From Anaerolineae bacterium (lineage in GTDB: Bacteria; Chloroflexota; Anaerolineae; CG2-30-64-16): a stretch of DNA of 64,000 nucleotides. The DNA is taken from positions 517 to 64,516 of the forward strand of contig JBBQRS010000012.1 of NCBI GenBank assembly GCA_038214535.1, given 5' to 3'. Both the position numbers and the translations under genes were made by a program. Of this stretch, positions 14,480 through 63,200 are shown in pieces. Positions within the stretch are counted from its first letter, which is position 1. Every line of letters begins with the position of its first letter. The notes under the pieces were generated by a model, which searched no databases, was not told where the DNA came from, and saw only the letters and a list, made by a program, of their open reading frames with translations.

Positions 14480-14555
14480 TGGTATCCCAGAGAGGACTTG
14501 AACCTCTGGCCTCTTCCTCCGCAGGGAAGCGCTCTATCCACTGAGCTACTGGGAC
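14480..14555 (-). tRNA. tRNA-Arg, anticodon apparently GCG
   Basis: The reverse complement folds as a cloverleaf with D-loop AGUGGAUA (A20 Arg identity), anticodon stem CUUCC/GGAAG, loop CUGCGGA, T-arm GGUUCAAGUCC and an encoded CCA. Confidence 0.65.
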
Positions 14556-14582
14556 ATATTCGCCCTGTCTCACAACAGAGCC

Positions 14583-14678
<96 letters not shown>

Positions 14679-14694
14679 TAATCCTGCTCTTTAC

Positions 14695-14785
<91 letters not shown>

Positions 14786-16280: not shown

Positions 16281-16299
16281 ATCCCCTCCCCCCAAAGAG

Positions 16300-42347: not shown

Positions 42348-43574
42348 ATGCGCATTATCTACGTACTCCTATCGCCGACCTTCGGGATGCACCAATACAC
42401 CGCCGACCTCGCGAATCGTGCGGCGGCGGGCGCTTTCAGCTTTGGCGAGACGCCGGACGTACACGTGGTGACAACCACCGGGTTTCCCCGCGATGCGTAT
42501 GGGCCGCATATCCAGATGCACACGCCGCTGGCCTCCACCGGGACAGGCTTCTCACCCGAAGGGGCGGCGATCGGCGCATTGCGACGCACCATCCGCGCCG
42601 TCACACAACTCGCAACCGACCATCAGGTTCCCGAACTGACGATTGTACATATCACAGGCGTACATCTCTGGAACGTCGCGCTGGTACGCGTCCTAACCCG
42701 GCAAGGCGTTCCCACCGTCCACACACTGCATGATCTTCAGGCGCACAGCGGCGTCAAGTTTGGGTCACTGATCCCGCGCTGGAATGCGCTGGTCATGCAG
42801 GCCGGCGCGCATATCCTCGTCCACGGTCAACGTTATCGCGCACAATTGCTTGCCCAGGGCGTTCCAGCAGATCGCGTGACCTATGCGCCGCTGCTCCACG
42901 GATTCTGGAGATTCGGCGCGGGGCCAGATGAACATATGTCAACCCGTTTGTATGCTGCGGAACTTGACAGTGCCGTTCAAGGGTGCAAAGATGATACGCG
43001 TGGGCTAGTATTGTTCTTTGGACGGGTGGAGACGTACAAAGGTGTAGACACACTGCTTGATGCGTGGCATCAAGCGTGGTCGCAGTCAGGCAATGATGAC
43101 CTCGATGTTCGTCTGGTGGTCGCGGGCGCCTGGCCGCAAGGCGTCGAACCTCCCGCCGGCCTCCACAACGTCGAATTCCGAAATTACCGCATCACCGACG
43201 ATGAAGCCATTACGTTGTTTCGTTCGGCGATGCTATTGGTGCTGCCCTATGAAGATGCAACCCAGTCGGCGCTGATCGCCGCAAGCTATGCGTTTGGGGT
43301 GCCGGTCGTCGTGACGGATTCCGGCGCGCTGCCGGAGTATGTGATACCCGGGGAAACCGGCTGGGTCGTCCCGGTTCATGATGCTGTGCAATTGAGCGCC
43401 GTACTGCGACAGGCCATCGCAGGTCGTTCACATCTCGCTCGAATGGGCGACAATGGGCGGCGCTGGTACGAAGAACAACGCCGGGTTGAGACGGATACGC
43501 TGGCCCATATGTATCGCCACTTGATTCATCACGTGGCCGCTAACGTCAGGGGGGCCGAATATGACAACCGATAG
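42348..43574 (+). CDS. GT4 family glycosyltransferase
   Basis: GT-B fold C-terminal motif (PYEDATQSALIAASYAFGVPVVVTDSGALPE). Confidence 0.55.
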   Translation: MRIIYVLLSPTFGMHQYTADLANRAAAGAFSFGETPDVHVVTTTGFPRDAYGPHIQMHTPLASTGTGFSPEGAAIGALRRTIRAVTQLATDHQVPELTIVHITGVHLWNVALVRVLTRQGVPTVHTLHDLQAHSGVKFGSLIPRWNALVMQAGAHILVHGQRYRAQLLAQGVPADRVTYAPLLHGFWRFGAGPDEHMSTRLYAAELDSAVQGCKDDTRGLVLFFGRVETYKGVDTLLDAWHQAWSQSGNDDLDVRLVVAGAWPQGVEPPAGLHNVEFRNYRITDDEAITLFRSAMLLVLPYEDATQSALIAASYAFGVPVVVTDSGALPEYVIPGETGWVVPVHDAVQLSAVLRQAIAGRSHLARMGDNGRRWYEEQRRVETDTLAHMYRHLIHHVAANVRGAEYDNR

Positions 43575-45063
43575 GCTTTCCAGCGTCCAGTCGCCGTCCG
43601 CAGATATGGCGACGCGCCTGCGTGCGCTTCCGCCGCATCTTTCGTTGCCCAGTGTCGGCCTGCGGCGTTCCGAGCGTATCATCCTTTTGTGGGCGGTGGA
43701 TGTCCTCTTGCTGTTCACATCGCTCATCGTTGCCGTCAGGCTCCGGGAAAGCTGGCTCAATGAACCGGGTGCGGTGTTCGCCTACTGGCGCTGGTTCTTG
43801 ACGCTTACGGTCGTCTGGTGGATTTCAGCGCACTTGTTTGATATTTACGATCTGGCGCGCTCAGCCAGCGCTTCACACAGCATGGTCAACACCGGCGCGG
43901 CGGTCGCCTTGACGGTCCTCGTCTATCACTGGATTCCCGTCTATAGCCCGCCGCTGGCCTCACGTGGTCTGGTCTTCATCTTCGCTGCGCTTGCCATCGT
44001 GAGCGTGAGCCTCTGGCGCGGCGTCTATGCCCGGGCCATCAGGCAGCCCAACTTTCAGCGGCGCGCGATTGTGCTCGGCGCAGGCCTGGCCGGCAAGACA
44101 TTCGTTGAGGAACTGCGCGAACTCCCGGCTTACGGCAACCCATATTCCGGCACAGGCTACGAGATCGTCGGCTTCGTTGACGATGATCCGGCCAAACAAA
44201 ACAGCGCGCAGTTCGCCGGCGTTCAGGTGCTTGGCGACAGCACGGAGTTGGCGGCGTGGGCCGAAGCCACCGGTGCGGAAGATGTCGTCGTTGCGATCAC
44301 GCACCGCAACACGCTTTCACAAGCGGCCCTCAACGCGCTACTGGCCTGCCGCGAAAAAGGGATCACCATCACGACGATGCCCGCGCTTTATGAACAACTG
44401 CTCGGGCGTGTCCCCGTCGAACATGTCGGCGGCGATCTCGCCGCGGTGCTGCCCATGCAAAACGGCCCGACAGACCGCCTGTTTCATGGCGTGAAGCGAG
44501 TGACCGATATTTTCCTTTCCACCATTGGCCTCGGTTTGCTCGGCCTGTTACTGCCGTTTCTGGCGCTCGCCAACATGTTTGCCAATCCGGGGCCGTTATT
44601 CTACTCGCAAACGCGCGTCGGGCGCGGCGGGCGGCATTACACAGTCATCAAGCTGCGGTCTATGCTCCCCAACGCCGAAGCCAAGAGCGGCGCAGTCTGG
44701 TCAACCACCAACGACCCGCGGATTACGCCATTTGGCAAATTCCTGCGCAAGTCCCGGCTCGACGAGTTACCTCAGTTCTATAACGTCCTCAAGGGCGATA
44801 TGAGCGTCATCGGGCCGCGGCCTGAGCGTCCCGAATTCGTAGACGAACTGGCCGCCAAGATTCCGTTCTATCGCGCCCGTCACGCCGAAAAACCGGGCAT
44901 CACCGGCTGGGCGCAGGTTCGCTATAGCTATGGCAGCACCATCGAAGATTCACGCATCAAGCTGGAGTACGATCTCTATTACGTGCGTCACGCCGGGTTC
45001 TATCTCGACCTGTTGATTGCCATGAAAACCATCGGCGAAATGTTGCGCCTGAAGGGGCGTTAG
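43561..45063 (+). CDS. Polyprenyl glycosylphosphotransferase (WbaP/CpsE-like initiating sugar-phosphate transferase)
   Basis: N-terminal TM helices, a Rossmann-like middle region, and the C-terminal bacterial sugar transferase domain (PRITPFGKFLRKSRLDELPQ...GDMSVIGPRP). Confidence 0.8.
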   Translation: MTTDRLSSVQSPSADMATRLRALPPHLSLPSVGLRRSERIILLWAVDVLLLFTSLIVAVRLRESWLNEPGAVFAYWRWFLTLTVVWWISAHLFDIYDLARSASASHSMVNTGAAVALTVLVYHWIPVYSPPLASRGLVFIFAALAIVSVSLWRGVYARAIRQPNFQRRAIVLGAGLAGKTFVEELRELPAYGNPYSGTGYEIVGFVDDDPAKQNSAQFAGVQVLGDSTELAAWAEATGAEDVVVAITHRNTLSQAALNALLACREKGITITTMPALYEQLLGRVPVEHVGGDLAAVLPMQNGPTDRLFHGVKRVTDIFLSTIGLGLLGLLLPFLALANMFANPGPLFYSQTRVGRGGRHYTVIKLRSMLPNAEAKSGAVWSTTNDPRITPFGKFLRKSRLDELPQFYNVLKGDMSVIGPRPERPEFVDELAAKIPFYRARHAEKPGITGWAQVRYSYGSTIEDSRIKLEYDLYYVRHAGFYLDLLIAMKTIGEMLRLKGR

Positions 45064-48918: not shown

Positions 48919-50571
48919 GTGGAACTTAAAGACTACATTCGACCGATTCGTAAATGGTGGTGGTTGATTGCCGCATCGGTGCTCATCGCGACGCTGGCCG
49001 CTTATGTCGCGACGCGCCGGCAGCCGCCGATTTACAGCACGCGCACCACCGTCATGGTCGGCAATGCGATTGACAACCCGAACCCCAGTGGGTACGAGTT
49101 TTATCTCACCCAGCAATTAGCCAATACCTACGCCGACATTGCCGGTCGCGACAACGTCCGCGACGCGATCCAGATCGCGCTCGATTTGCCTTACGTGCCG
49201 CCCTACTCGGCGCGTGTCGTGCCCAACACCCAGTTGGTCGAAATAGTCGTCACTGACACGGACCCGCGCCGCGCGCAAAGCGTCGCCGAAGAAGTCGTTC
49301 ACCAACTCAGCCAGCTCAGCCCCACCGGTCAGGGCGGCCAGAGCCAGGCGCGCCAGGAATTCATCCAGAATCAGCTCAACGAGCTGGAAACCAACATTCG
49401 CAACACCCAGGCTGAATTAACCAAGCGCCAGGATGAATTGGCGACGCTTTTCAGCGCCCGCCAAATCGCCGATGCTCAGGCCACCATCGCCGGCCTCCAG
49501 AACAAGCTCGCCACGCTTCAGACCAATTACTCCGGCCTGCTCGCCAACACCCAGGCGGGCGCGCTCAACGCCATTAACATCATCGAAAAAGCTGCCCTGC
49601 CAACGAACCCGGTCGGGCCCAACAAGATGATGACCATCCTGATGGCCGCGGCGATTGGGCTCGCGCTGGCGACGGCCGCGAGCTATCTCCTCGAATACAT
49701 GGACGACTCCCTGAAAAACCCCGAGGATGTCAAGAAGGCCCTTGGGGTGACGACGCTTGGCGCCGTGCCGCGCATTGATGGCACAGCTCCCGGCAACGAA
49801 CTCGCGATCCTTACCAACAGTCAATCCACGGCCGCCGAAGCCTATCGCGTGCTGCGCACCAATCTGCAATTCGCAGCCGTTGACCGACCGCTAGATACTC
49901 TGTTGGTCACCAGCCCGGCCCCCAGTGAGGGCAAATCCATGACCATCGCCAATCTGGCGGCGGCGCTGGCCCAGGCCGGCCAGAAGGTCATCATCGTGGA
50001 CACCGACCTCCACCGCCCGCGCCTGCACAAAGTCTTTGGCCTGCGCAACAACCTCGGCGTCACCACGGCGCTCCTGCAAGAGCATCCCAATATTGACGGC
50101 TTGCTCCAGGAGACCACCCTGCCGAATCTGCGCGTGCTGACCGCCGGCCCATTGCCGCCCAACCCGGCCGAGTTGCTCGGTTCGCAACGCATGGCCGAAC
50201 TTATGGCAACCCTCAAGAACGAGTCGGACATCGTGCTCTTCGATAGCCCGCCCGTAACGGCCCTATCGGATACGGCGATCCTCTCCACGCAGATGGACGG
50301 TGTGCTGCTAGTCATAGACGCCGGCAAGACGCGTCGCGACATCGCGAAGCGCGCCATCGAAGCGCTAAACCGCGTCAATGCCCACGTGATCGGCGTGCTG
50401 CTCAATCGCATGCCCATGCAAGGCGGCGGCGGTTACTACTACTACTACCAGTATGGCGACTATTACGGGTCAAACGACGGCTCCGCCAGCCAGGGTAAGA
50501 AGGGCAAGCGGCCGCGCGCTCGAGCGCGCGGTGCCGAGTCGCCGCAAACGATCACCGAAACGCCGCAATAA
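48919..50571 (+). CDS. Polysaccharide co-polymerase / tyrosine autokinase (Wzc/EpsB-like: Wzz domain + BY-kinase)
   Basis: N-terminal Wzz TM domain, a coiled-coil region, Walker A SEGKS, A' VDTDLHRP, Walker B VLFDSPP, and a C-terminal Tyr cluster GGGGYYYYYQYGDYYG. GTG start. Confidence 0.75.
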   Translation: MELKDYIRPIRKWWWLIAASVLIATLAAYVATRRQPPIYSTRTTVMVGNAIDNPNPSGYEFYLTQQLANTYADIAGRDNVRDAIQIALDLPYVPPYSARVVPNTQLVEIVVTDTDPRRAQSVAEEVVHQLSQLSPTGQGGQSQARQEFIQNQLNELETNIRNTQAELTKRQDELATLFSARQIADAQATIAGLQNKLATLQTNYSGLLANTQAGALNAINIIEKAALPTNPVGPNKMMTILMAAAIGLALATAASYLLEYMDDSLKNPEDVKKALGVTTLGAVPRIDGTAPGNELAILTNSQSTAAEAYRVLRTNLQFAAVDRPLDTLLVTSPAPSEGKSMTIANLAAALAQAGQKVIIVDTDLHRPRLHKVFGLRNNLGVTTALLQEHPNIDGLLQETTLPNLRVLTAGPLPPNPAELLGSQRMAELMATLKNESDIVLFDSPPVTALSDTAILSTQMDGVLLVIDAGKTRRDIAKRAIEALNRVNAHVIGVLLNRMPMQGGGGYYYYYQYGDYYGSNDGSASQGKKGKRPRARARGAESPQTITETPQ

Positions 50572-50642: not shown

Positions 50643-50671
50643 TTGACATCTGCTCGAAAAGCTGCTACAGT
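50643..50671 (+). promoter_or_regulatory. Candidate sigma70-type promoter (TTGACA-17 bp-TACAGT) in an AT-rich 290-bp intergenic region
   Basis: Consensus -35 with a plausible -10 at 17-bp spacing, about 190 bp upstream of the vWA gene, which has a GGAGG RBS. Confidence 0.3.
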
Positions 50672-50862: not shown

Positions 50863-52314
50863 ATGACATTACTTCCGAAGAGAGCAAACTTACTCCTGAT
50901 TGTGGTCCTGCTGTTAAGCTTCACGCTCGCCATCCCGGTGAGCGCGCAGGCTCCGACGCCGGAACCCAACGACATCGAGCTCGCCCTGGTGCTTGACGGT
51001 TCGGGCAGCATCGGGATCGATAACTTCAGAATCATGAAAGAAGGCATCGCGGCGGCCCTCGCTAACCCCGCATGTGTGCCGGAAGATGGTTCCATCTGGG
51101 TTTCCGTAACCCAGTTCGGTGCGGACGCGACGGTCGAGATGCCGCTGACGGAAGTCACGGTCGCCAGCATTGCCGGCATTGCCGCGACGGTGGCAAACAT
51201 TCCCTACAAGGATTCCTTCACCAATTATCAGGCAGGCATCGAGACCGGCTTGAGCACTTACGCGGGTACCGGTCGCCGCCAGGTCATGAACTTCGCAACC
51301 GATGGTCAGCCGAATACAGGCGACATCCAGCACACACCCACCTTGCGTCAGATGGCGATTGACGCCGGTGTTGATGAACTGGACATCGAAGCCATTGGCG
51401 ACCCTGAGATCCTTAACATCCCGCGCCTTCAGGACCTTGCCCACCCGCAGCCGGGCGTCCTCTGGGAAAATACGCCCCTGCCGACTGCACCGGGTTGGGT
51501 AAAACGGGTCGAGAATTACAATGAGTTCGCGGACAGCATCTGCGCCAAGTTCGTTTCGATCGCCAGCGGTCGCCTGGTCGTCAGCAAGGTCACGAACCCC
51601 AGAGGCGCGGGCCACGTGTTTGACTTCTCATTGACCGGCCCCAATACGAACGAAACGTTCCAGTTGAAGGACGGCGAAAGCTTCAGCACCGAGGCGAACC
51701 TGGCGGACGGAACCTACACGGTTACCGAAATCTACAATGACGACGGAGCCGGGGGCGAAGACGGCTGGACGACAGCCATCTCCTGCGACACCGCGCCGCC
51801 CACCACCTCAGAGACCAACACGATTGACGTGATGGTTGACGGCCCGGTGGAGTGCATCGTCACCAATACCGCCGATCCGACATCGGTGCAACTGGCCGAT
51901 TTCAGCGGCGCCGTCAAGCCGGATCACATCCTGCTGAGCTGGGAAACCGTCAGCGAAGTGAACAACCTGGGCTTCAACGTCTACCGTAGCGACGCCGCCA
52001 ACGGCGCGCAGAGCCTCATCTCGGCCACGATGATCCCGGCCAACAACCCGGGCGCGACTCAGGGCTCGACCTACAGCTTCCAGGACACCAACGTGCAGCC
52101 GGGCGTAACCTACTACTACTGGCTCGAAGATCTGGACGCAACTGGCCAGGCGAGCAAAGCCGGCCCGGTGGCCGTGACCTTCCTCGGCCCCACGTCCGTC
52201 GGCCTGAATAGCTTCACCGCTGCGGCTTCGTCGGCTCCCGCCCTGCTCGGGTTGGGGGGCGCAGCAATGGCTGCCCTCGCCGGCCTCGCCGTCGCCCGTC
52301 GCAAACAAGACTGA
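50863..52314 (+). CDS. Secreted vWA-domain protein with C-terminal PEP-CTERM-like sorting signal variant
   Basis: Signal peptide, the MIDAS-like LVLDGSGSI motif, a central beta-sandwich region, and the C-terminus SAPALLGLGGAAMAALAGLAVARRKQD (hydrophobic helix plus basic tail). Confidence 0.5.
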   Translation: MTLLPKRANLLLIVVLLLSFTLAIPVSAQAPTPEPNDIELALVLDGSGSIGIDNFRIMKEGIAAALANPACVPEDGSIWVSVTQFGADATVEMPLTEVTVASIAGIAATVANIPYKDSFTNYQAGIETGLSTYAGTGRRQVMNFATDGQPNTGDIQHTPTLRQMAIDAGVDELDIEAIGDPEILNIPRLQDLAHPQPGVLWENTPLPTAPGWVKRVENYNEFADSICAKFVSIASGRLVVSKVTNPRGAGHVFDFSLTGPNTNETFQLKDGESFSTEANLADGTYTVTEIYNDDGAGGEDGWTTAISCDTAPPTTSETNTIDVMVDGPVECIVTNTADPTSVQLADFSGAVKPDHILLSWETVSEVNNLGFNVYRSDAANGAQSLISATMIPANNPGATQGSTYSFQDTNVQPGVTYYYWLEDLDATGQASKAGPVAVTFLGPTSVGLNSFTAAASSAPALLGLGGAAMAALAGLAVARRKQD

Positions 52315-52346: not shown

Positions 52347-52535
52347 ATGGAGAAAATCACACACACGCAGCCGATGGCGACCAGGCAAGTCTGGGAAGAA
52401 CCCGCCATCATCCTTGAACGCCCGTTGGAAGTCGTCGCCCAGGATGGCCCAACCGATGATAACTGGGTCGCACCCAGCCCGTGGCGTCTGCCCGGCCCGC
52501 TTGCCGCATCCGGCGGCGCCGGCTTCTGCCAGTAA
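52347..52535 (+). CDS. Candidate RiPP precursor peptide, copy 1 (62 aa)
   Basis: Strong RBS AAGGAG 10 nt upstream. The C-terminal 47 aa are identical to copy 2 at 54391 despite many synonymous nucleotide differences. A terminator follows. Confidence 0.6.
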   Translation: MEKITHTQPMATRQVWEEPAIILERPLEVVAQDGPTDDNWVAPSPWRLPGPLAASGGAGFCQ

Positions 52536-52561
52536 TCACCTGCCCTGACTCGTAACATGGT

Positions 52562-52596
52562 GCGCCGGGCCTTGCGGCCCGGCGCATTTGTTTTTT
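52562..52596 (+). terminator. Rho-independent terminator (GCGCCGGGCC-TTGC-GGCCCGGCGC + ATTTGTTTTTT)
   Basis: A perfect 10-bp GC stem followed by a U-run, 27 nt after the precursor stop. Confidence 0.65.
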
Positions 52597-52726: not shown

Positions 52727-52867
52727 TAAAGCGATTGCCGTAGAGGTCGCTTACGGATCTGGGCGGCTGCGATTGTCTTCCTGGTCCGGGCAATGTCGCC
52801 CCCATCACCCGGCAGTGACCCGCTATTTACTGCCAATTCTTTGACTCCCAACGGAGCACAAAACGTC

Positions 52868-53155
52868 ATGTCTCAAACCGATACCCGCAGGCCATCGCAT
52901 CATTCACGAACGGCATCGCGCGTCTTCAGCGGTGAAGCCGTGGTCATTACCCCTGCCGAAAACGTCGTGCGTATGCTCAACCCGATCGGTTCCCGAATCT
53001 GGGAACTGGCCGACGGCACGCGCACGATTGACGACATAGCGTCCGTGCTCACCGGCGAATTCGATGTAGACTTCGCTCACGCCCATCAAAGCGCAACAAC
53101 CTTCGTCGAAGACCTGGCTGCCAGAGGCTTGATCGCATTCGAGGAGAGCGAATGA
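52868..53155 (+). CDS. PqqD-like RiPP recognition element (RRE) protein
   Basis: About 95 aa. The motif GEAVVITPAENVVRMLNPIGSRIWELADGTRTIDDIASVL matches the PqqD family pattern (E.V.L.....y.LN..g..IWeLldG..t..eI). GGAG RBS. The stop overlaps the rSAM start. Confidence 0.6.
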   Translation: MSQTDTRRPSHHSRTASRVFSGEAVVITPAENVVRMLNPIGSRIWELADGTRTIDDIASVLTGEFDVDFAHAHQSATTFVEDLAARGLIAFEESE

Positions 53156-54345
53156 GCGGCATTCCTCTGATGCTCACGCCACCCACAGAGCCTCTGCATC
53201 GCGGTTTCGAGGCTTGCGGCTCAGACAGCGCCCCACACGATGCCTTCGAGGCGCTGCTGGCGCGGATGCGTGACGAGTTCATCCCCTTCACCGTGCTTTG
53301 GGAGATGACCCACACCTGCAACCTGGACTGCATCATGTGCTACAACGTGAAGCAGTCGCAGCCCGAGCTCGCGACCGATGAAGCGTTGGAGTTGCTCGAA
53401 CAGATGGCGCAGGCAGGGACGTTACGGCTCATCATGACCGGCGGTGAAATCCTGGCCCGCCGTGACTTCTTCACCATCGCCAACCGGGCACGCGCCCTGG
53501 GTTTTGCGCTGGACCTGAAAACCAACGGCAGCCTGCTCACGTCCGAATCTGCGGATCGCATGGCCGCGTTGGAACCGGTGCAGGTGGAAATCAGCCTGCT
53601 TGGCGCGACCACGGCGACGTTCGACGCCATCGCGCAAAGCAAGGACACGCTGCGGCGCGTCCTGCGCGGCGTCAAGCTCCTGAAAGAGCGCAGCGTCCGC
53701 GTCAAGCTCAATACCCTGCTGATGGACCTCAATTTCGCCGAGCGTGAGCAGATGTTCGAAATCGCAAGCGAGCTTGGCGTGGAGTACGAACAGGCCATCA
53801 AGATATCCCAGTCTGATGACGGCTCGGACAAGGCCGGCAGCCACCAGATCAGCCGCGCGCAGATCACCGACACGCTGGTCACCTACGAAGCGCCGTTTGC
53901 GCCGATTCAACTCACGCCCAACCGGCGCACCTGTAAAGTGGGCTTGTCTTCGTGTCTCATCAGTCCCTACGGCATCGTTTACCCGTGCGTCGAATTGCGC
54001 ATCCCCGCCGGCGATTTGCGCAAACGCTCGTTCGGTGAGATTTGGGCCGACGCGCCGATTTTTAGCAATTTACGGGCAAACCACACATTCAAGAATCTGC
54101 CGGAATGCCAGGTCTGCCCCATCAACACCTATTGCGAGGGGCGCTGCGCCGGCCTGGCATGGAAAGAGCACGGCGATCCTTACGGCGGTCACATGCTGGC
54201 CTGCCGGCACGCGCAAGCGCGCTTCGCCCAACAGAACCCGGATGAAGCCATCCCTGAGACGCCGTTGCAGGCGCGCCTCAAGCGTGAGCGCGGCGGCGAA
54301 CAAGAAACCGTCAAACACCAACCGATTATGCTTGTTGACATGTAA
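53152..54345 (+). CDS. Radical SAM / SPASM-domain peptide maturase
   Basis: The CNLDCIMC (CX3CX2C) motif after an N-terminal extension, and a C-terminal Cys-rich SPASM region (CKVGLSSC...YPC...CQVCPINTYCEGRC). Confidence 0.8.
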   Translation: MSGIPLMLTPPTEPLHRGFEACGSDSAPHDAFEALLARMRDEFIPFTVLWEMTHTCNLDCIMCYNVKQSQPELATDEALELLEQMAQAGTLRLIMTGGEILARRDFFTIANRARALGFALDLKTNGSLLTSESADRMAALEPVQVEISLLGATTATFDAIAQSKDTLRRVLRGVKLLKERSVRVKLNTLLMDLNFAEREQMFEIASELGVEYEQAIKISQSDDGSDKAGSHQISRAQITDTLVTYEAPFAPIQLTPNRRTCKVGLSSCLISPYGIVYPCVELRIPAGDLRKRSFGEIWADAPIFSNLRANHTFKNLPECQVCPINTYCEGRCAGLAWKEHGDPYGGHMLACRHAQARFAQQNPDEAIPETPLQARLKRERGGEQETVKHQPIMLVDM

Positions 54346-54390: not shown

Positions 54391-54579
54391 ATGGACACAA
54401 AACCATATCCGCAAAATGTCGTAACCAAACGAACGTGGGAAGAACCCGCGATCATCCTGGAACGCCCGCTCGAGGTCGTCGCGCAAGACGGGCCGACCGA
54501 CGACAACTGGGTCGCGCCCAGCCCGTGGCGTTTGCCCGGCCCCCTCGCCGCATCCGGTGGCGCCGGTTTCTGCCAATAA
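54391..54579 (+). CDS. Candidate RiPP precursor peptide, copy 2 (62 aa)
   Basis: AAGGAG RBS. The residue 16-62 region is identical to copy 1 (WEEPAIILERPLEVVAQDGPTDDNWVAPSPWRLPGPLAASGGAGFCQ). The N-terminal 15 aa differ. Confidence 0.6.
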   Translation: MDTKPYPQNVVTKRTWEEPAIILERPLEVVAQDGPTDDNWVAPSPWRLPGPLAASGGAGFCQ

Positions 54580-54671: not shown

Positions 54672-57536
54672 ATGAAAAACCACAAGCGCGCCTGGGGCGT
54701 CATCTCGGCTATCCTCCTGGTGTCCATGCTCGTCACACCCGGATATGCCGGCAGCGCCGCGCAGGCTTCCGAACCGATCACACTCAGCGTCCGAACTCCC
54801 GAATATCAACTTGACGCGGCCGGTCTGCGCGTGCCCGGCTATACCACAAATCGTACGCCCGGCGCGCCGGCCCTTCCCGTCTATCAAACCATCGTTGAGT
54901 TGCCCCCATCGGGCGATTTCCAATTAGTGGTGACCACGCCCGGCGCTCAGGAGATGGCGACCTCTGTCACCATCCCCGCCGCGCCGTCACCCGATCCATC
55001 CGCCGATCATCCTCGCACCGGCTCCGATCCGGATGAGTTGCCCACCGACGCCGCCATGATCGTGCAACCCGACCCCGCGATCTACGACGTGGACGCCTTC
55101 TATCCGGGCCAGCCGGTCATCGCGGGCGAGGTGCAAATCCAGCGCGGCCGCCGGTTCCTGCCGCTCCAGGTGTTCCCCTTCCAGTACAACCCGACCACCG
55201 GCGCGCTGCGTTATCTGCCTGATATTGGCGTCACCGTGGAAATCACGCCCGCCGACAGCCAGGCAACCAACATTGCTGCACCCGATCTGGCACAGGTCAA
55301 CCCGCCTGCCGTGAACGGCGCCGCGCTGCGCATCTACATCTCGCAGCGTGGGATGCATCGGCTCACGTACAGCGACCTATCCGCCGCTGGCGTGCCGTTG
55401 GCCTCGACCAACGTCTCGGCCTTCGCCATATACTATCTCGGCCAGCCGGTGGACATCCAGGTGCTGGACCGCAACGGCAACAACCGGTTCGACGCCGATG
55501 ACCTGGTCATTTTCTACGCCGAGCCCTATCAGGGCCGCTACATGACCCGCAACGTCTACTGGTTCAGCTATGGCGCGGGCAGCGGGGCGCGGATGCAAAC
55601 GCGCGCCCGCACACCCTCGGGCGGGGAACCTGTCGTAACATCCATCACCCAGACCTCCCGCGTCGAGGTGGACAAGGTCTACGTGAGCGACATTCAGCGC
55701 CCGATAGACGAAGACCATTACTATGACAACTCGCTTTACGCCAACGCCGCCTACCCCACCGTAACCCGGACCTATAGCCTGCCTGTGGACGACCTGGTGA
55801 CCTCAGGCGCCGCATCGCTGCGCGCCAGCGTCTACGGGGGTAAAGTGCAGGGCGCCGCCACCGACCAATCCATGGCGATCCGTGTCAACGGGAACAACGC
55901 CGGAACGTACAAGTGGAAAGGCAAAACGGGATATACCGCCTCGACGGGCGTCTCCGGCGCGTGGCTCACCGATGGCGTCACCCAGGTTACGCTGGAAGCC
56001 GCGTTGAGCCAACTACCGGCGCTATCGTACTACTGGATTTACCCCGATTGGGTCGAACTGACCTATACCGCCACCGCCGACGCCGAAGCCGATCGCATCT
56101 ACATCGAAGCCGCGCCCGCGGGGGCTAATAAAGTCGTAGTGACAGGTTTCTCGTCGCCTGACGTACACGTGTACGATGTGCGCAACCCGCGCCAACCCGT
56201 CCAACTGACGACAGTGCAATCTCAGCCTGCGGGTGGAAGCAACACCATCCACTTCTGGGACGCCGATCTACCGAACCCGAGTTACTATCTGGCAACCGAA
56301 GCCGCACTGCTCGCGCCCGCCGAGATCCAGGCCGATACGCCATCCAGTTGGCAGTCGCCTTCCCGCAACGCGTCTTACATCGCCATCGTCCACAGCGACC
56401 TGTGGAACGCCGTCCAACCGCTACTCGACTTCCGGCAGGCCGAAGGGCTCGCCGTCGCCAAAGTCAACATCCAGGACGTTTACGACGAATTCAGCTACGG
56501 ACTGGTTGACCCCGAGGCCATCCGCGCATTTCTGACTTACGCCTATCAAAACTGGCGCAGCGACGGCAGCCCCCCCGAATACGTCATGCTTGTCGGCGAT
56601 GGGCATCACGATTTCAAGAACGCCGAAAACTCGACGCTCAAGAATCTGATCCCGCCCTACCTCGTGGACATAGACCCGTGGATCGGCGAAACCGCGGCGG
56701 ACAATCGTTTCGTCAGCGTGGACAGCCCCACAGACTTCCTGCCCGAAATGCACATCGGTCGGGTCTCCGCGCAGGATGCAGCAGGCGTCAACGCCTTCGT
56801 CAACAAGGTACTGGCCTACGAAGGCGCGCCCGGCGGGGCGTGGCAAAGCAACGTCGCCTTCATCGCAGACGACTGCAATAACGCGGTGGGCGACTTTAAC
56901 GCCATCAGCGAACTGATCCGTAAGAACTGGTTGCCCGCGCAATACAACGCATCCAGGACTTACTATCGCGTGCCGACGGCGGGCGACAACTGCCCCAATG
57001 CGAACTACACCGACCCGGCGGCGATGAAGAACGCCATCAAGACCGTCTACAACGGCCAGAATCTCATGTTACAGTGGTTCGGGCACGGCTCGCGCTTCCG
57101 CTGGGGCTATTCTTCCAGCCTCTTCAATTACGAAGATATCCCGGCGTTGGCCCCGAACACCGTTTGGCCCGTAGTGATGCACTACACGTGCTACACCGGT
57201 TACTTCCACAACGTCTATCAGAATCTGCAATCGCTGGCCGAAACGGAGTTGACCACCGCAAACCGGGGTTCCGTCGCCAGCTACGCCGCCACCGGTCAAC
57301 ACCTGGGCGTGGACGAACTGGTGATGAACGAGGGCGTCAACAAGGCCCTGTTTTATGATCGCCTGCCGCGGATCGGTCAGGTCATAGACTCGGCCCGCTA
57401 CTTCTACTTCGCAAACTCGCCGGTCTACCTCGACCTGATTGACTCTTCGGTTCTGTTCGGCGACCCGGCGCTCAAGGTCAAGTTGCCGGCGGCCATGGTC
57501 AACGTCAGCACGTACTTGCCAATGATCTCGCGGTAA
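54672..57536 (+). CDS. Secreted clan CD cysteine peptidase, C25 (gingipain)-like family, with large N-terminal propeptide/beta-rich region
   Basis: Signal peptide MKNHKRAWGVISAILLVSMLVTPGYAGSAA. Catalytic-dyad-like motifs WFGHGS (His) and HYTCYTGYF (Cys) in the C-terminal third. A GTG at 54660 is an alternative start. Confidence 0.5.
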   Translation: MKNHKRAWGVISAILLVSMLVTPGYAGSAAQASEPITLSVRTPEYQLDAAGLRVPGYTTNRTPGAPALPVYQTIVELPPSGDFQLVVTTPGAQEMATSVTIPAAPSPDPSADHPRTGSDPDELPTDAAMIVQPDPAIYDVDAFYPGQPVIAGEVQIQRGRRFLPLQVFPFQYNPTTGALRYLPDIGVTVEITPADSQATNIAAPDLAQVNPPAVNGAALRIYISQRGMHRLTYSDLSAAGVPLASTNVSAFAIYYLGQPVDIQVLDRNGNNRFDADDLVIFYAEPYQGRYMTRNVYWFSYGAGSGARMQTRARTPSGGEPVVTSITQTSRVEVDKVYVSDIQRPIDEDHYYDNSLYANAAYPTVTRTYSLPVDDLVTSGAASLRASVYGGKVQGAATDQSMAIRVNGNNAGTYKWKGKTGYTASTGVSGAWLTDGVTQVTLEAALSQLPALSYYWIYPDWVELTYTATADAEADRIYIEAAPAGANKVVVTGFSSPDVHVYDVRNPRQPVQLTTVQSQPAGGSNTIHFWDADLPNPSYYLATEAALLAPAEIQADTPSSWQSPSRNASYIAIVHSDLWNAVQPLLDFRQAEGLAVAKVNIQDVYDEFSYGLVDPEAIRAFLTYAYQNWRSDGSPPEYVMLVGDGHHDFKNAENSTLKNLIPPYLVDIDPWIGETAADNRFVSVDSPTDFLPEMHIGRVSAQDAAGVNAFVNKVLAYEGAPGGAWQSNVAFIADDCNNAVGDFNAISELIRKNWLPAQYNASRTYYRVPTAGDNCPNANYTDPAAMKNAIKTVYNGQNLMLQWFGHGSRFRWGYSSSLFNYEDIPALAPNTVWPVVMHYTCYTGYFHNVYQNLQSLAETELTTANRGSVASYAATGQHLGVDELVMNEGVNKALFYDRLPRIGQVIDSARYFYFANSPVYLDLIDSSVLFGDPALKVKLPAAMVNVSTYLPMISR

Positions 57537-57583: not shown

Positions 57584-58777
57584 ATGCAGCATCGGCTGCG
57601 TCCCTATTTTTTTTGGAAAGCGCCAATGGCCGCTAACTCAGTATTCGATCCCTTTGAGCTTTCAACGCGAGGCTCTCTTCCACCGAAGTGGGTGGACTGG
57701 CTGGGCCACACGCTGCGCGCGGAGGGCGCGCCGCCTGCGCCCGATCACCACCTCCTCGCCGAATGGCGCGCCGTGCTGCCCGCACTGGACGTTCACGCCA
57801 TCACGCCGCTGCTCTACCTGCGCCTGCGCGACGCCCGCCTCCTGCAAGCCTTGCCGCCGGAATTTCGCGATGCGCTCTACGTCACATTTCAAGACAACGC
57901 CTTGCGCTCCCTCGTCTTCGAACACGAACTTGAATCCATCATTGCGACCTTCGCGCGTGAGGGCATCCCCCTGATCTTGCTCAAGGGGCTTGCCACCGGG
58001 CGGCTGGTCTACGGCAGTCCCGCCGAACGCCCCATCGGAGACCTCGATCTGCTGGTTCCTTTCGACGATATGGCGCGGGCGCGCCGCACCCTGCGCCAAG
58101 CCGGCTACGAGAGCATCGGCTGGGCCGGGCTGGATCGTGTGGCGCGCTGGCAACACGCCTTCCGCTCGGAGATGCCCATGCTCTGCACCCGGCCCGACCG
58201 CTACGGCCTGGTCACCGAGTTGCACTGGTCGCTATTAGAGATTCCCTACTACATCCAGTGCATCCCTATGGCGGATGTTTGGGCTGCCGCCGCGCCGGTA
58301 TCCGGCCACCCCGGCGTCAGCGTCCCCGACCCGGCCACCCTGCTGATCCACAGCGCCGCGCACCTGGCGCTACATCACAGCCGCGAGCTGCGCCTGATCT
58401 GGTTGCTCGATCTCGACCGGCTCGCCCGCTGGCAGGCAATGGATTGGGCCGGGGTGATCGCATGGACGGAAACCTGGGGCCTCGGCAGGGCCGTCCACAC
58501 GGCTCTGAGCGTCTCACAGCGCTGGCTTGGCACGCCCGTCCCGCCAGACGCCCTTGCGCAACTCTCGCGGCTCACACATAGCGCCGCGGGCGATGCCACC
58601 TGGGGACTGGGCGATGAACAGGCCGGCCGCTCGCGCCGTCGCGCCGTCGTCAGTTGGCAATTGCTGAATGGGCGCGACCGCCTGCGTTACGCTGCCTGGC
58701 TGGGGTTTCGCTTGCTCCTGCGCCCCTTCGAGCTTGCCGGCCGCCCGGACAAACGCGCGAACATGGAGGTTCACTGA
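57584..58777 (+). CDS. Nucleotidyltransferase-fold protein (PF14907-like uncharacterised nucleotidyltransferase)
   Basis: Pol-beta NTase signature PIGDLDLLVP...D. This family is recurrently encoded beside HPr-kinase-like genes in RiPP (lasso) clusters. Confidence 0.5.
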   Translation: MQHRLRPYFFWKAPMAANSVFDPFELSTRGSLPPKWVDWLGHTLRAEGAPPAPDHHLLAEWRAVLPALDVHAITPLLYLRLRDARLLQALPPEFRDALYVTFQDNALRSLVFEHELESIIATFAREGIPLILLKGLATGRLVYGSPAERPIGDLDLLVPFDDMARARRTLRQAGYESIGWAGLDRVARWQHAFRSEMPMLCTRPDRYGLVTELHWSLLEIPYYIQCIPMADVWAAAAPVSGHPGVSVPDPATLLIHSAAHLALHHSRELRLIWLLDLDRLARWQAMDWAGVIAWTETWGLGRAVHTALSVSQRWLGTPVPPDALAQLSRLTHSAAGDATWGLGDEQAGRSRRRAVVSWQLLNGRDRLRYAAWLGFRLLLRPFELAGRPDKRANMEVH

Positions 58778-58778
58778 A

Positions 58779-59621
58779 ATGGCTGACGCGCTCACGCTCG
58801 ACATCAGCGGTCTGAAGATCTCCGTCGGCATCCCCCATCCCGATTGGCGCCCCGGCTTGGCCGAACGCTATGCCGCCTTCCTGAGCGACGACTCGCCGCG
58901 CTGGCGCGTGGATTTGCGCCACGACCCGGCGCTCACAGACACCGAGCATCCCTGGCTGCGCCACCACGGCGCGCTTTCGGTCTTCCGGGTTAACGCCTAC
59001 GCCGGCTGGATAGATATGGCGCGCCGCGCCGGATCGGTCGCCACGCCTTCCCACGCGCGGGCCGTCTCCGCCCTCGAACGCACGTTGGCCTACGTCTGTA
59101 TGCAGGCCCTGCCGCGTGAATACGATGCGCTCCTGCTCCACAGCGTCGGCGTTGAGGTGGGCGGACAAGGTCACGTTTTCTTTGGGCCGTCCGGCGCGGG
59201 CAAAACCATGATTGCGCGTTTGAGCGCAGGCTTCGGGCGTATCCTCAGCGATGAAAGCATCATCCTCCGTGACACCGGCGACGGCATCGCCCTCGACAGC
59301 ACCCCCTTCTGGGGCCTCAGCACGCCCCCGGAGATGGTGCATCGGGTGCGCCGCACGCTACCCCTCACGGCGCTCTACACGCTCGTCCACGCCCCCACCT
59401 TCGAATTGGAACGTCTGCGCCCGTGGGAGGCCGTCTCGACTTTGCTGAACACCGAGAAGGTCGCCGTAGAGCGCGTCGAAAGCGCCACAGTCTGGCTCTC
59501 CATCGTCGAGCGCATCCTGGCGCGCGTGCCGGTCTACCGGCTCAGTTTTCCGCCAACGGCCGATCTCTGGCCGTTCCTCAAATCCGCGCTCCCTGAACGT
59601 GCGTCGCCGCCGGCCGCCTGA
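58779..59621 (+). CDS. HPr kinase/phosphorylase C-terminal-domain-like P-loop protein (putative peptide kinase)
   Basis: P-loop GPSGAGKT preceded by LLLHSVGVEVGGQGHVFFG, like the HprK C-domain. GGAGG RBS. The start overlaps the upstream stop region. Confidence 0.5.
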   Translation: MADALTLDISGLKISVGIPHPDWRPGLAERYAAFLSDDSPRWRVDLRHDPALTDTEHPWLRHHGALSVFRVNAYAGWIDMARRAGSVATPSHARAVSALERTLAYVCMQALPREYDALLLHSVGVEVGGQGHVFFGPSGAGKTMIARLSAGFGRILSDESIILRDTGDGIALDSTPFWGLSTPPEMVHRVRRTLPLTALYTLVHAPTFELERLRPWEAVSTLLNTEKVAVERVESATVWLSIVERILARVPVYRLSFPPTADLWPFLKSALPERASPPAA

Positions 59622-59624
59622 ACG

Positions 59625-60089
59625 ATGCCCACGTCTTCCATCCCGCAGCACCGCGAGGCCGCGGCCTGGGTCCCCCTCCTGCTGGAGATCCTCAACCAGA
59701 AGGGGCGCTGCCGCTGGCCCTTACGCGGCCAGAGTATGCTGCCCACCCTGCCCTCCGACTGCGAGATTGACGTCGCGCCGCTGCCGTTCGACGTGCCGCT
59801 CGGTTCGCTGATCGTCTTCGCCAACGGCGACGCGCTGGTCGCCCATCGGCTGGTGCGGCGCGCCGGCGCCAAATGGATCGCGCAGGGCGACCACCGTCGC
59901 AGTCCCGACAGAGGGCTTGATCCCGCCCAGGTATTGGGCATCGTGCGCGCAGCCTACCTTCCGAACGGGGAACAATGCTGGCCGCCGGCCTTGTCCGGCG
60001 CGCTGGCGTGGTATTGGATTGCGCGCTATCATATGTATCGAGCGGCGCGCTTCGCCATTCGCGCGATGTACGGTCGTCCCAGAGGATAG
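59625..60089 (+). CDS. S24/S26-family (signal peptidase I / LexA-like) peptidase
   Basis: GQSMLPTL Ser-nucleophile motif and a downstream conserved basic residue region (AHRLVRR). 154 aa. Confidence 0.45.
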   Translation: MPTSSIPQHREAAAWVPLLLEILNQKGRCRWPLRGQSMLPTLPSDCEIDVAPLPFDVPLGSLIVFANGDALVAHRLVRRAGAKWIAQGDHRRSPDRGLDPAQVLGIVRAAYLPNGEQCWPPALSGALAWYWIARYHMYRAARFAIRAMYGRPRG

Positions 60090-60291: not shown

Positions 60292-63200
60292 ATGTCGCGT
60301 CTCTTTAAGCTCATAGGGATGATCATACTGGCAGGTCTGCTGGGCGGTTGCACTGCGGGCCTGACACCAGACAGCCCGCCCACACAATCTTCCAGCACAG
60401 GCACAACGTCCGTGCGCGTCATCCGAGCGGCGCAGTTCACGGATTCCGGCCCGATCAGTGAGGGCGGCCCGACAACCGGGCTGCAATTCAGCCTGACCCG
60501 GGGTCAGGAACAGCCGGAGTCTTCCGCGCCCATCACGCAGGCGGTTACTTCGCCGCTCAAGCCGGCCGAGGTGGACGCCCTCCTGCAACGCCTGCCGCCC
60601 CTGGCGAAGGCGACCGGCGATGTGCAAGACCTGGCGCTGCCGCCAACCACCATTCCGCCACCGCGCACCGGCGCCACAGTCAATGAACCTTTCCCGCCGC
60701 CCGCCACGCCGCCTCCCACCGTGCTGCCAGAGAACACGCCGCTCGAGGTCTTGCGCTACGCACCCGAAGGCGACGTGCCGCTGGCCGCCAACCTCAGCGT
60801 GACCTTCAACCAGCCCATGGTCGCGCTGACCGGTCTGCAAGACCTGGGTAACGCGCCGCCGCCCGTGCAACTCTCACCGCTGCCGCCCGGCCAATGGCGT
60901 TGGGTGGGCACAAACACGCTGCTCTACGAACCGGACCCGCGCTTCCCCATGGCGACCCGTTACACCGTCGAAGTTCCTGCGGGCACAAAATCGGCCACAG
61001 GTAACACGCTTGCCAGGGCCGTCACCTGGACCTTCACCACGCCGCCACCGCAGGTGTTGCAATTCTCGCCCACGGGCAGCGGCCTGCCCCTCGACCCACT
61101 GATGGTCGCAACCTTCGACCAGAGAATTGACCCCGATGCCGTACTCGCCGCGATCCAGGTGAAAGCCAATGGCGCAGCCACGCCGATCCGACTGGCGACC
61201 GCCGCCGAACTCGACGGCGACAGGACCGCCGGCGCACTGATCGAGGACGCAGGCGAAGACCGCTGGATCGCCTTCCGCGCGCAAGAGCCATTCGCACCTG
61301 CCGCTTCCGTAACGGTTACGTTTGGCTCCGGCCTGCCCTCCGCGGAAGGCCCGCTGAAGACCGAGAAGCCCCAGGAGTTCAGCTTCGAGACGCACGGCCC
61401 GCTCGCCGTGGTGCGCAGCCAATGCGGATGGGATAGCAACTGCCCGCCGCTCATGCCCTGGAACATCGAGTTCAGCAACCCGCTGAATCCTGACGTATTC
61501 GACGCGTCGCAAGTGAGCATCACCCCGGAGCTTCCGAATACCGTCATCCAGATTTTCGGCAACACGCTCCAGATTCAGGGCCGCAGCCAGGGACGCATGC
61601 AGTACAGCGTCCGCCTGAGCAGAACGATCCGCGATATTTACGAGCAAACGCTCGTTGAAGACCAGACCGTCGTCTTCAACGTTGGCGAGGCCAACCCGGC
61701 GATCTGGGCCGCAGGCACGCCCTTCGTCGTGCTCGACCCGGCCCTGCCGCCGCGCTTCTCCGTCTTCACGGTCAACTTCCCCCGGCTCGATGTCAAAGCC
61801 TACGCGGTCAAACCGGAGGACGGGCAAGCTTTCCAGCTTCATCTGCGATCCTACTATCGCGATGAAAAGCCGACCACACCGCCCGGACGCCTGGTCCTTT
61901 CCAAAAAGATCGAGGTCAAGTCGCAACCGGATCAACTGACGGAGACGACGATTGACCTCGACCCGGCCCTGAAGGACGGCAAGGGTCAACTCGTCCTCAT
62001 CATCACCCCGGAGACGACCGGCCTGACCCGGCTTCTCGAAATGTTCGGGGGTAGGCCGCCCGTGATCACGACGTGGGTTCAGGCCACCCAGATCGGCCTC
62101 GACGCATTCGTGGATAACACGGAAATGGTTGCCTGGGCCACCTCGCTGGCCGACGGCAAGCCGCTGCCGGACGTAGCGTTTGATCTCCTTGACGTGAATG
62201 GCAAGTCGCTCGGCGCGGGCGCGCGTTCGGATGCAGACGGAACCGCTCGCATTGCCCTCCGCCCGCAGACCGCCGCGACCCTGGTCGCGCGCCTGGGCGA
62301 CGATATGGCGATGCTGCCGGCGAACACCTACATGTGGGGCGACGGCGGCTGGACGGCGCAACCCGTCCGCGACCGACTGGCTTGGCACGTCTTCGATGAT
62401 CGCGGCATGTATCGCCCCGGCGAGGAAGTCCACGTCAAGGGCTGGCTCCGCCGGATCGGCGGCGGCGAGGACGGCGACGTTGGCGCGCTGCGCGGCGGGG
62501 TGGAATCCGTGAGCTACCGCGTCATGGATGCGCAGGGCAACCAGGTGGGGCAGGGTTCCGCCGATCTCAGCCCGCTCGGCGGGTTCGATTTGGCTTTCAC
62601 GTTGCCTGAGGGCATCAACCTGGGCTACACCACACTGGATCTGACCGCCGTGGGCAACCTGAATGACTTGGACGGCGCAAACTACGGCCACAACTTCCAG
62701 GTACAGGAGTTCCGTCGCCCCGAGTTTGAAGTCAAAACATCCGCGTCCGAAGGCCCGCACTTCGTCGGCGACGCCGCGACGCTGGAAGTGAGCGCCGCCT
62801 ACTATGCCGGCGGCCCTCTGCCCAACGCGCAGACCACCTGGCAGGTGAGCAGCGCCGCCGGTCAGTACTCGCCCCCCGGCTGGGACGATTTCACCTTCGG
62901 CCAATGGATCCCGTGGTGGCGCGGCTATCAGCCCTCGTTCCCTGCCATGGATAACACGCAGACTTTCGACGGGCTCACGGACGCCGCGGGCGTTCATCGG
63001 CTCCAGATCAACTTCGAGTCCGTCGAGCCGCCCGGCCCCAGCACGGTCACGGCGCAAGCCACCGTGATGGACGTCAACCGGCAGGCGTGGACTGCGCAGA
63101 CTACCCTGCTGGTGCATCCTGCATCGCTCTACGTCGGCCTGCGCAGCGACCGCATGTTCGTCGAGCGCGAAGAGCCGCTGCCTATCGAAGCCATCGTCAC

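Follow-up and report, generated by a model that had tools for sequence, protein, structure and literature searches.

The question raised by this locus is how a secreted von Willebrand factor A (vWA) protein is retained or sorted at the cell surface by its C-terminus. The gene lies at 50863..52314 of a window of 64,000 nucleotides (64 kb; the whole stretch of DNA that was analysed, whose positions are used throughout) on contig JBBQRS010000012.1 of an Anaerolineae bacterium. Its product ends in a hydrophobic helix and a basic cluster, which the first-pass annotation had read as a variant of the PEP-CTERM sorting signal with SAP in place of PEP. C-terminal sorting signals decide which proteins reach the cell surface, and cognate enzymes are known for several classes. 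Our analysis indicates that the vWA protein very probably belongs to a new module family and not to PEP-CTERM. The module is a fixed C-terminal cassette found on many unrelated passenger domains, several per genome, and apparently represents a very large C-terminal anchoring or sorting family of Chloroflexota for which no prior description was found. The explanation that we favour, with a probability of roughly 55%, is that the protein is a surface-displayed vWA adhesin carrying this Chloroflexota-specific module, which is displayed and then processed by an extracytoplasmic enzyme, with a PorU-like C25 peptidase encoded nearby as the best candidate.

The C-terminal module and its relatives

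The open reading frame (ORF) at 50863-52314 is a genuine gene, the product of which can be divided as follows.

50863..52314, +, vWA-module gene, ATG start, 483 residues, encoding a secreted vWA protein with a C-terminal module
50863..50952, +, Sec-type signal peptide as read from the sequence (K6/R7, hydrophobic core, SAQA then P)
50980..51333, +, vWA domain, residues 40-157 (Pfam VWA 6.5e-11, DUF1194 4.8e-7)
51568..51873, +, SpaA-like (prealbumin-fold) beta-sandwich stalk domain, from homologue matches and predicted strands
51877..52188, +, FN3-like domain, the body of the C-terminal module (PTSVQLADFSGA ... WETVSEVNNLGFNVYR ... YYYWLEDLD ... GPVAVTF)
52189..52221, +, signature motif PTSVGLNSFTA (family consensus P-T-A-V-x-L-x-x-[LFV]-x-A)
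52222..52239, +, variable Ala/Ser/Pro linker AASSAP, which holds the 'SAP' and whose columns vary in alignments
52240..52296, +, hydrophobic helix of 19 residues, ALLGLGGAAMAALAGLAVA, interpreted as a membrane anchor of the stop-transfer type
52297..52311, +, basic cluster RRKQD, with a predicted cytoplasmic location

The order of parts is thus signal peptide, vWA domain, SpaA-like domain, FN3-like domain, PTSVGLNSFTA, a short linker, the 19-residue helix and RRKQD. The C-terminal sequence quoted earlier, ...NSFTAAASSAPALLGLGGAAMAALAGLAVARRKQD and ...SAPALLGLGGAAMAALAGLAVARRKQD, agrees with the translation of the gene. The leader at the N-terminus, MTLLPKRANLLLIVVLLLSFTLAIPVSAQA, appears as a helix at residues 6-21 in a low-confidence full-length AlphaFold2 (AF2) model, which was built from a shallow alignment with a mean predicted local distance difference test score (pLDDT) of 59.8 and was used for domain order only. 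The vWA assignment is carried by a Pfam VWA score of 43.2 bits against a cut-off of 23.8, together with the DxSxS motif; the metal ion-dependent adhesion site (MIDAS), DGSGS, is intact at residues 45-49 (D45, S47 and S49; 50995-51009), and D147 of the same domain is nearly invariant in the homologue alignment. The SpaA-like region, for which the full-length model gives beta strands at residues 236-337, matches PF24514 (SpaA_4) in homologues, and the window protein itself gives only a weak match to DUF7601.

The body of the module is well defined in structural modelling. AF2 modelling of the last 145 residues returned an FN3-like sandwich with pLDDT above 90 for residues 11-100 and strands up to residue 102, and FNIII domains were the top matches when this 145-residue model was submitted to Foldseek. 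In the alignment of relatives the domain has the consensus P-x-A-V-x-L-A-x-F-x-A ... WETVSE..N.GFNVYR ... YYYWLED.D ... HGPVSV, and it is followed by the signature, a variable Ala/Ser/Gly/Pro linker, the hydrophobic helix and a nearly invariant Arg cluster. Among 165 non-redundant tails the signature residues occur at frequencies of 92% (P), 85% (T), 90% (A), 92% (V), 80% (L) and 88% (A), and behind this 80-92% conserved stretch the linker and helix vary freely. The median distance of the signature is 20 residues (range 12-31) to the helix core that follows it and 42 residues to the C-terminus. Since it recurs in these 165 relatives, the tail is more than a chance hydrophobic end.

The signature has the residue pattern of strand A of the FN3-like domain (P80, A85, V82, L91, F91 and A94, in per cent of 242 sequences), with PTSVQLADFSGA and PTSVGLNSFTAA as the two copies in the window, so that a PTAVxL-type signature flanks the FN3-like domain on both sides. 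The possibility that PTAV forms the last FN3 strand was considered and rejected, as the module model leaves the motif outside the fold, with no strand and with pLDDT falling from 76 to 52, and the motif is also found without the domain. Two proteins without an FN3-like domain still have the tail of PTAV, helix and Arg cluster, which is therefore separable from the domain.

With each GTDB species represented by one genome, a pattern scan gave 269 relatives, from which 80 loci were listed and 77 kept. All 77 come from records named Chloroflexota (Anaerolineae, Caldilineales, Ardenticatenales, Thermoflexales and Ca. Amarolinea), except one 2.3-kb contig from a metagenome-assembled genome labelled Planctomycetales. 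The module C-terminus of that contig (L044, JAGQOW010000333.1) is identical over the overlap to that of L024, from Caldilineae HK-STAS-CHLO-19, and the contig is probably mis-binned. The nearest relative of the window module in a GTDB representative, L002, is 90% identical to it across the module. For several genomes, between three and six loci are among the 80 listed (six each for HK-STAS-CHLO-17 and DTUCFX11), and in some of these multi-locus genomes module copies stand in tandem within the loci. A profile search with the module extended this to 51,610 cluster representatives at E ≤ 1e-3, of which 16,282 reach E ≤ 1e-10, and the full tail lies at the extreme C-terminus in 94 of the best 145 representatives.

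The module is carried by proteins of about 200 to more than 2,800 residues with passenger domains as different as vWA, SpaA_3/4, lamin-tail, GEVED, G8, alpha-amylase, subtilase S8 and SdrD_B. In 123 of 124 module proteins from the loci the FN3-like domain is single, at a median of 123.5 residues from the C-terminus, and a complete tail is present in 80 of the 124. BLAST overlap between homologues and the window protein is confined to residues 225-483, mostly beyond about residue 300, and includes the FN3-like domain. A simple hydrophobicity test found an N-terminal leader in 65 of 78 module proteins, compared to 113 of 333 neighbouring proteins. Exchange of the C-terminus is also evident: the DUF1194/vWA relative P0027 has a true PEP-CTERM domain (PF07589), the relative P0028 has a type IX secretion system (T9SS) C-terminal domain after its FN3-like domain, and other relatives stop right after the FN3-like domain or end in YLPxVxR. 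The source databases name the tail-bearing proteins only 'hypothetical protein' and 'lamin tail domain-containing protein', and no Pfam or NCBIfam (release 20) model covers the module in searches with the protein, the isolated tail and related tails. As a separate observation, P0029, P0038 and P0043 carry long tandem arrays of the FN3-like WETxSE domain (9, 42 and 33 matched stretches, respectively), unlike the tail-bearing proteins, which have this domain once only.

Eight attributes of tripartite sorting signals have been listed by Haft (bioRxiv 10.1101/2023.06.07.544157), and by sequence comparison the module shows most of them. It takes a C-terminal tail position, occurs at multiple loci per genome and has a signature conserved at 80-92% (attributes 1, 2 and 3), with the reservation for the signature that an FN3-like domain nearly always precedes it and that a linker separates it from the helix. 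A hydrophobic helix is followed by two to five basic residues, mostly Arg (attributes 4 and 5), most module proteins have N-terminal signal peptides (attribute 6), many pairs of members have only the signal region in common (attribute 7), and homologues exist that lack the signal or have a different one (attribute 8). The near-constant 'pre' domain and the spacer between motif and helix are unusual for tripartite signals.

How far the tail agrees with known signals was assessed with family models. The vWA protein and its isolated tail gave no match to the PEP-CTERM model TIGR02595 at E ≤ 10 in NCBIfam, and the protein gave none to PF07589 at E ≤ 1 in Pfam. When 60 related tails were scanned with NCBIfam, sub-threshold matches were scattered over a dozen CTERM models, with 12 for MYXO-CTERM, 10 for LPXTG_anchor, 9 for GVDTG and only 2, at E ≤ 0.1, for PEP_CTERM, the best E-value for the last being 0.015. 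LPXTG_anchor (TIGR01167) scored 12.3 bits with the whole protein and 17.2 bits with the isolated tail, over model positions 11-33 only, and GVDTG_CTERM scored 17.7 bits with the isolated tail against a cut-off of 29; both weak matches cover the generic helix and basic part only. PEP-CTERM, LPXTG, MYXO-CTERM, GlyGly-CTERM, IPTL and other CTERM models were accordingly set aside as candidates, with scattered sub-threshold matches only among the protein, the tail and the 60 relatives. The module tails contain no LPXTG-like, GlyGly or Cys-containing motif in the alignments, and T9SS C-terminal domain (Por_Secre_tail) models gave no match to the vWA protein at E ≤ 1 (Pfam) or E ≤ 10 (NCBIfam).

The first-pass annotation was thus right about the tripartite layout, as motif, helix and basic cluster are all present, and where it had reserved the case that no other protein shares the tail, 165 non-redundant tails were found. 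Its identification of the tail as PEP-CTERM did not survive the model searches, and a role of SAP as a stand-in for PEP was not confirmed: the position is occupied by TAP, SVP, TTP, ALP or nothing similar in relatives, and conservation is found instead in PT[AS]VxL, at a median distance of 20 residues ahead of the helix core. The annotation had noted no exosortase gene in view, in agreement with our searches of the window, where no exosortase, archaeosortase, sortase or rhomboid was found (Pfam on large real-looking ORFs, NCBIfam on unassigned and membrane proteins). The exosortase-type link that it had nevertheless proposed could not be upheld, since no exosortase-like gene was found in about 1 Mb flanking the 77 related loci and the recurring neighbour there is a PorU-like C25 peptidase. 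The same flanks contain no TLxTC sortase motif, and their polytopic proteins, identified by eye, are transporters, cytochrome oxidase parts, DUF368, DUF2085 and similar.

Two other window proteins end in a helix with basic residues. The DUF362 protein at 2730-3938 (-) ends in ...LVLGGLALRGRRR and the BNR-repeat protein at 29073-30500 (+) in ...LIAGVFVFKFR; both are without the PTAV signature and the FN3-like domain, and these C-termini look like ordinary anchors.

A PorU-like peptidase and the fate of the module

The gene that recurs most often next to module genes encodes a C25-family peptidase. After clustering of the flanking ORFs, this family was found at about 10 of the 77 loci, in about 10 genomes. 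In the window the gene stands 2.3 kb downstream of the vWA gene, directly behind a small peptide gene.

54672..57536, +, secreted PorU-like C25 cysteine peptidase (Pfam Peptidase_C25 9.1e-74)
54391..54579, +, small peptide gene copy 2, directly upstream of the C25 peptidase gene, a pairing conserved in other loci

The NCBIfam model of the T9SS sortase PorU (NF033707) matches the C25 protein at 7.1e-65 over model positions 4-743, and a sequence search of the PDB returned PorU (6ZA2) as the only match. The catalytic motifs GHG (His) and YTCYTGY (Cys) are in place and are conserved among homologues as GHG and TCxxGY. Judged by these comparisons and by its score below the PorU cut-off, the protein is PorU-like and not a PorU equivalog. 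PorU itself is sortase-like and cleaves off the C-terminal beta-sandwich domain of T9SS cargo (PMC4560394), and T9SS has been described as specific to the FCB (Fibrobacteres-Chlorobi-Bacteroidetes) superphylum (PMC12398890, PMC11205867). Our literature search found no publication on PorU-like or C25 peptidases, or on such sorting signals, in Chloroflexota.

The association was also examined in the reverse direction with 80 metagenome loci collected independently through the C25 catalytic region. A module ORF is present in 37 of these 80 loci, and in 27 of the 44 that are at least 9 kb long. Of the 38 module ORFs, 21 are no more than 1 kb away from the C25 gene, which gives a density of 1.79 per 10 kb compared to 0-0.5 in most other distance classes. 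The density peaks again, at 1.13 per 10 kb, 3-4 kb from the C25 gene, and this peak is taken to represent module genes beyond the intervening cassette genes. Five of the C25 proteins have an FN3-like domain themselves.

A second C-terminal motif, which has no helix, was observed in the fetched loci. It reads [Y/F/W]-L-P-[hydrophobic]-[V/I]-x-[R/K] within the last ~10 residues and ends 65 of 1,346 ORFs, compared to 2.9 expected from shuffles (maximum 9), with examples in L042, L079, L085, L098, L100, L104, L139 and many other loci. In some FN3-module proteins it replaces the PTAV-helix-Arg tail, and it may be another orphan C-terminal signal. The C25 protein of the window ends in ...VSTYLPMISR (57507-57536), and the NCBIfam scan of this protein gave matches to PorU-type models only.

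From these data a route for the vWA protein can be proposed. The N-terminal leader would direct export through Sec, and the 19-residue helix would halt transfer with RRKQD on the cytoplasmic side, as expected from the positive-inside rule, to give a type I membrane protein. The vWA/MIDAS head would then be held off the membrane on the SpaA-like and FN3-like stalk domains, until an extracytoplasmic enzyme recognises the exposed PTSVGL and cuts at or near PTAV, whereupon the passenger would be released or attached to the envelope. Whether such a predicted cleavage takes place at all we regard as evenly balanced, and the PorU-like C25 peptidase is put forward as the processing enzyme only tentatively. 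A more far-reaching version, in which Chloroflexota possess a T9SS-independent sorting route with C25 as a sortase on FN3-like-tagged cargo, cutting PTAVxL and perhaps passing the passenger to an envelope acceptor, is speculative and on balance unlikely; the acceptor in such a route might be the product of the adjacent exopolysaccharide (EPS) locus or the radical SAM-modified, Cys-terminated peptide whose gene immediately precedes that of the peptidase.

Several observations weigh against processing of the module or against the C25 peptidase as its enzyme. A distance of 12-31 residues separates the signature from the helix core, whereas in the known classical sorting signals the motif directly abuts the helix, and because the signature copies strand A of the FN3-like domain it could be what is left of a second domain, or a structural segment beside the membrane. 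The score of the C25 peptidase against NF033707, 219 bits, is below the cut-off of 420. Most C25 homologues end in YLPxVxR/K, a motif different from that of the module, and for this reason the C25 proteins may be cargo themselves and not the enzyme. Their genes pair at least as tightly with the gene of a small Cys-terminated peptide, often together with radical SAM and PqqD genes, and this peptide may be the real C25 substrate. Many genes with the tail are scattered at a long distance from any C25 gene, and at three dispersed tail loci no peptidase or sortase was found among the Pfam-labelled neighbours.

The tail may instead be a permanent type I membrane anchor, in which helix and Arg residues hold the adhesin in the cytoplasmic membrane, nothing cleaves, and PTAVxL is structural or a strand A remnant. 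We consider this a serious rival, though the less probable reading. The strand A pattern, the distance of the signature from the helix, the dispersed tail genes without a peptidase neighbour and the lack of a membrane-embedded sorting enzyme near any of the 77 loci all fit a permanent anchor. It would leave unexplained why most of the published sorting-signal attributes are present and why the motif is conserved at 80-92% while the adjoining linker and helix are free to vary; the placement of the signature outside the domain in the AF2 model, its occurrence on two proteins without an FN3-like domain and the tight pairing of module genes with a sortase-type peptidase gene also argue for more than an anchor.

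A true sorting signal could alternatively be served by another enzyme encoded elsewhere, such as a divergent sortase, a rhombosortase or a CPBP/myxosortase-type protease, with C25 belonging to the peptide cassette only. Sorting enzymes that act on many substrates are usually not encoded beside most of them, the link of the C25 gene to the small peptide gene is even tighter than that to the module genes, and the weak LPXTG_anchor, MYXO-CTERM and GVDTG matches show a helix and basic part of the generic type. The tails, however, are without the LPXTG-like, GlyGly or Cys-containing motifs of such systems, neither the TLxTC motif nor a candidate polytopic protease was seen in the ~1 Mb flanks, and the signature stands too far from the helix for an intramembrane active site, which together make another enzyme improbable. 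The reading of the tail as a PEP-CTERM variant, SAP for PEP, cut by an EPS-linked exosortase or archaeosortase whose gene lies elsewhere in the genome, draws on the tripartite layout, on the true PEP-CTERM domain of the distant DUF1194/vWA relative P0027, and on the position of the gene at the end of a large EPS locus, beside a Wzc-like kinase with sub-threshold similarity to XrtA-associated kinases. Given that neither PEP-CTERM model matches, that related tails match PEP_CTERM less often than MYXO-CTERM, LPXTG_anchor or GVDTG, that the SAP position is not conserved and that the window and its relatives' flanks hold no exosortase-like protein, it is nearly refuted. Processing by an extracytoplasmic enzyme, with C25 as the best candidate, thus remains the explanation that we prefer.

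The surrounding exopolysaccharide and peptide genes

The vWA gene stands between a long EPS locus, which includes glycosyltransferase, Wzy and ABC-transporter genes, and a peptide-modification cassette. The features on both sides are the following.

43561-45063, WbaP-like Bac_transf protein (1e-59)
48919..50571, +, Wzc-like chain-length determinant and tyrosine autokinase (TIGR01007 3.1e-55), end of the EPS locus
50643..50671, +, promoter-like site upstream of the vWA gene (TTGACA, 17-nt spacer, TACAGT, TG extension), a consensus match only
52347..52535, +, small peptide gene copy 1, 62 residues ending in GAGFCQ, 32 bp downstream of the vWA gene
52559..52588, +, terminator-like hairpin after peptide copy 1 (13-bp stem, 10 G-C pairs, T-run)
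52793-53155, +, PqqD-family chaperone (Pfam/NCBIfam)
53152-54345, +, radical SAM/SPASM enzyme (Pfam/NCBIfam)
57584-58777, +, NTP_transf_5 cassette gene
58668-59621, +, HprK/ScmC-like P-loop protein, cassette gene
59625-60089, +, S24/S26-like peptidase, 154-residue ORF with homologues in L002 and L065

The first-pass annotation had placed a Wzc-like kinase and a WbaP-like transferase just upstream, and both are there, as a Wzz/GNVR protein with tyrosine autokinase (48919-50571) and as Bac_transf (43561-45063). Its figure of 32 bp for the distance to the first precursor copy at 52347 is exact, and the co-transcription that it suggested is plausible, because this gap holds an AAGGAG ribosome-binding site and no terminator-like site, and the hairpin follows only after the peptide gene. 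Lying ahead of the PqqD and radical SAM genes, the hairpin may work as an attenuator and so increase the amount of precursor relative to the enzymes.

The 62-residue peptides follow the pattern WEEPAIxLERxLE...GPL..SG..G.C[Q/K]. In more than 10 loci from different genomes (L002, L034, L048, L075, L079-L081 and L093-L096), tblastn placed a match to the peptide directly upstream of a PorU-like C25 gene, in some of them without a detected radical SAM gene, and the peptide gene and the C25 peptidase gene form a tight pair. The wider cassette is conserved as well. L095, from Ca. Amarolinea, has TolB-like, Wzc, HprK-like, PqqD, radical SAM/SPASM, C25 and FN3-module genes together, and L096 has most of the same set, a Wzc homologue included, plus NTP_transf_5, with no TolB-like or HprK-like homologue detected; both loci have the tblastn peptide match just upstream of the C25 gene. 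The 154-residue ORF keeps company with the cassette of HprK-like, PqqD, radical SAM and C25 genes. It has no NCBIfam match, and the GGSMLPTL motif of its homologue in L065 suggests a peptidase of the S24/S26 type (signal-peptidase or LexA-like). Seven of the 80 C25-centred loci, L082 among them, gave S24/S26 matches.

Some further annotations of the window were noted. An ORF at 60292-63999 (+), in the G+C-richest part (63-68%), runs off the window end after more than 1,236 residues and gives only a weak FxLYD match, and the 866-residue ORF opposite to it looks spurious. At 14480-14784 (-) three tRNA genes (Arg-GCG, Ser-GCT and Ser-TGA) lie next to a minus-strand ORF, 14991-16295, identified by eye as seryl-tRNA synthetase; the plus-strand ORFs listed there are artefacts.

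Relation to known sorting systems

Chloroflexota dominate activated sludge, sediments and soils, and the architecture of their envelope is debated. The tail appears to define an orphan class of sorting signal in tens of thousands of protein clusters, and with a hidden Markov model of the module some of the surface proteins predicted for Anaerolineae, Caldilineae and related classes could be recognised, amylases, subtilases and adhesins among them. The tight pairing of module genes with genes for PorU-like peptidases points to a candidate sortase-type enzyme outside the FCB superphylum, and the conserved neighbourhood connects surface display with an EPS locus and with a peptide cassette of the radical SAM type.

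Among known systems, the combination of a dedicated beta-rich 'pre' domain with a tripartite tail directly downstream is shared with PGF-pre-PGF and PGF-CTERM, the substrates of archaeosortase A, which differ from the module in being archaeal, in a PGF motif that abuts the helix and in an archaeosortase as the enzyme. The marine proteobacterial sortase target with VIT, vWA and LPXTG parts is likewise a vWA adhesin, with a dedicated sortase encoded nearby; signal and enzyme family are different, and the module signal is common to many proteins and not restricted to one. PEP-CTERM/exosortase systems (TIGR02595, PF07589) share with the module the succession of motif, hydrophobic helix and Arg cluster, the many secreted proteins per genome, the frequent link to EPS loci and vWA/DUF1194 passengers, as in P0027. 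The module differs by its signature, PTAVxL and not PEP, which lies about 20 residues from the helix core where PEP abuts the helix, by the near-constant FN3-like domain, by the lack of a model match, by its phylum and by the lack of an exosortase in the window and flanks. LPXTG/sortase systems (TIGR01167, PF00746) have the tripartite layout and a generic helix and basic part to which the tail matches weakly, whereas the module has no LPXTG-like motif and no sortase in the window or flanks.

The orphan and Cys-type tripartite signals MYXO-CTERM, JDVT-CTERM and WGxxGxxG-CTERM (bioRxiv 10.1101/2023.06.07.544157) are of the same design and came to light by the same route of discovery, but the module has no invariant Cys, another signature, spacing and taxon, and no CPBP-family neighbour was seen. 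The T9SS/PorU system (NF033707; PDB 6ZA2; PMC4560394) differs in that a membrane helix and an Arg cluster come after the beta-sandwich of the module, that the module has no match to Por_Secre_tail and that the peptidase scores below the PorU cut-off. Both systems place a C-terminal beta-sandwich on diverse secreted hydrolases and adhesins, in both a PorU-type C25 cysteine peptidase is encoded nearby, and in the FN3-like relative P0028 a T9SS domain takes the place of the tail.

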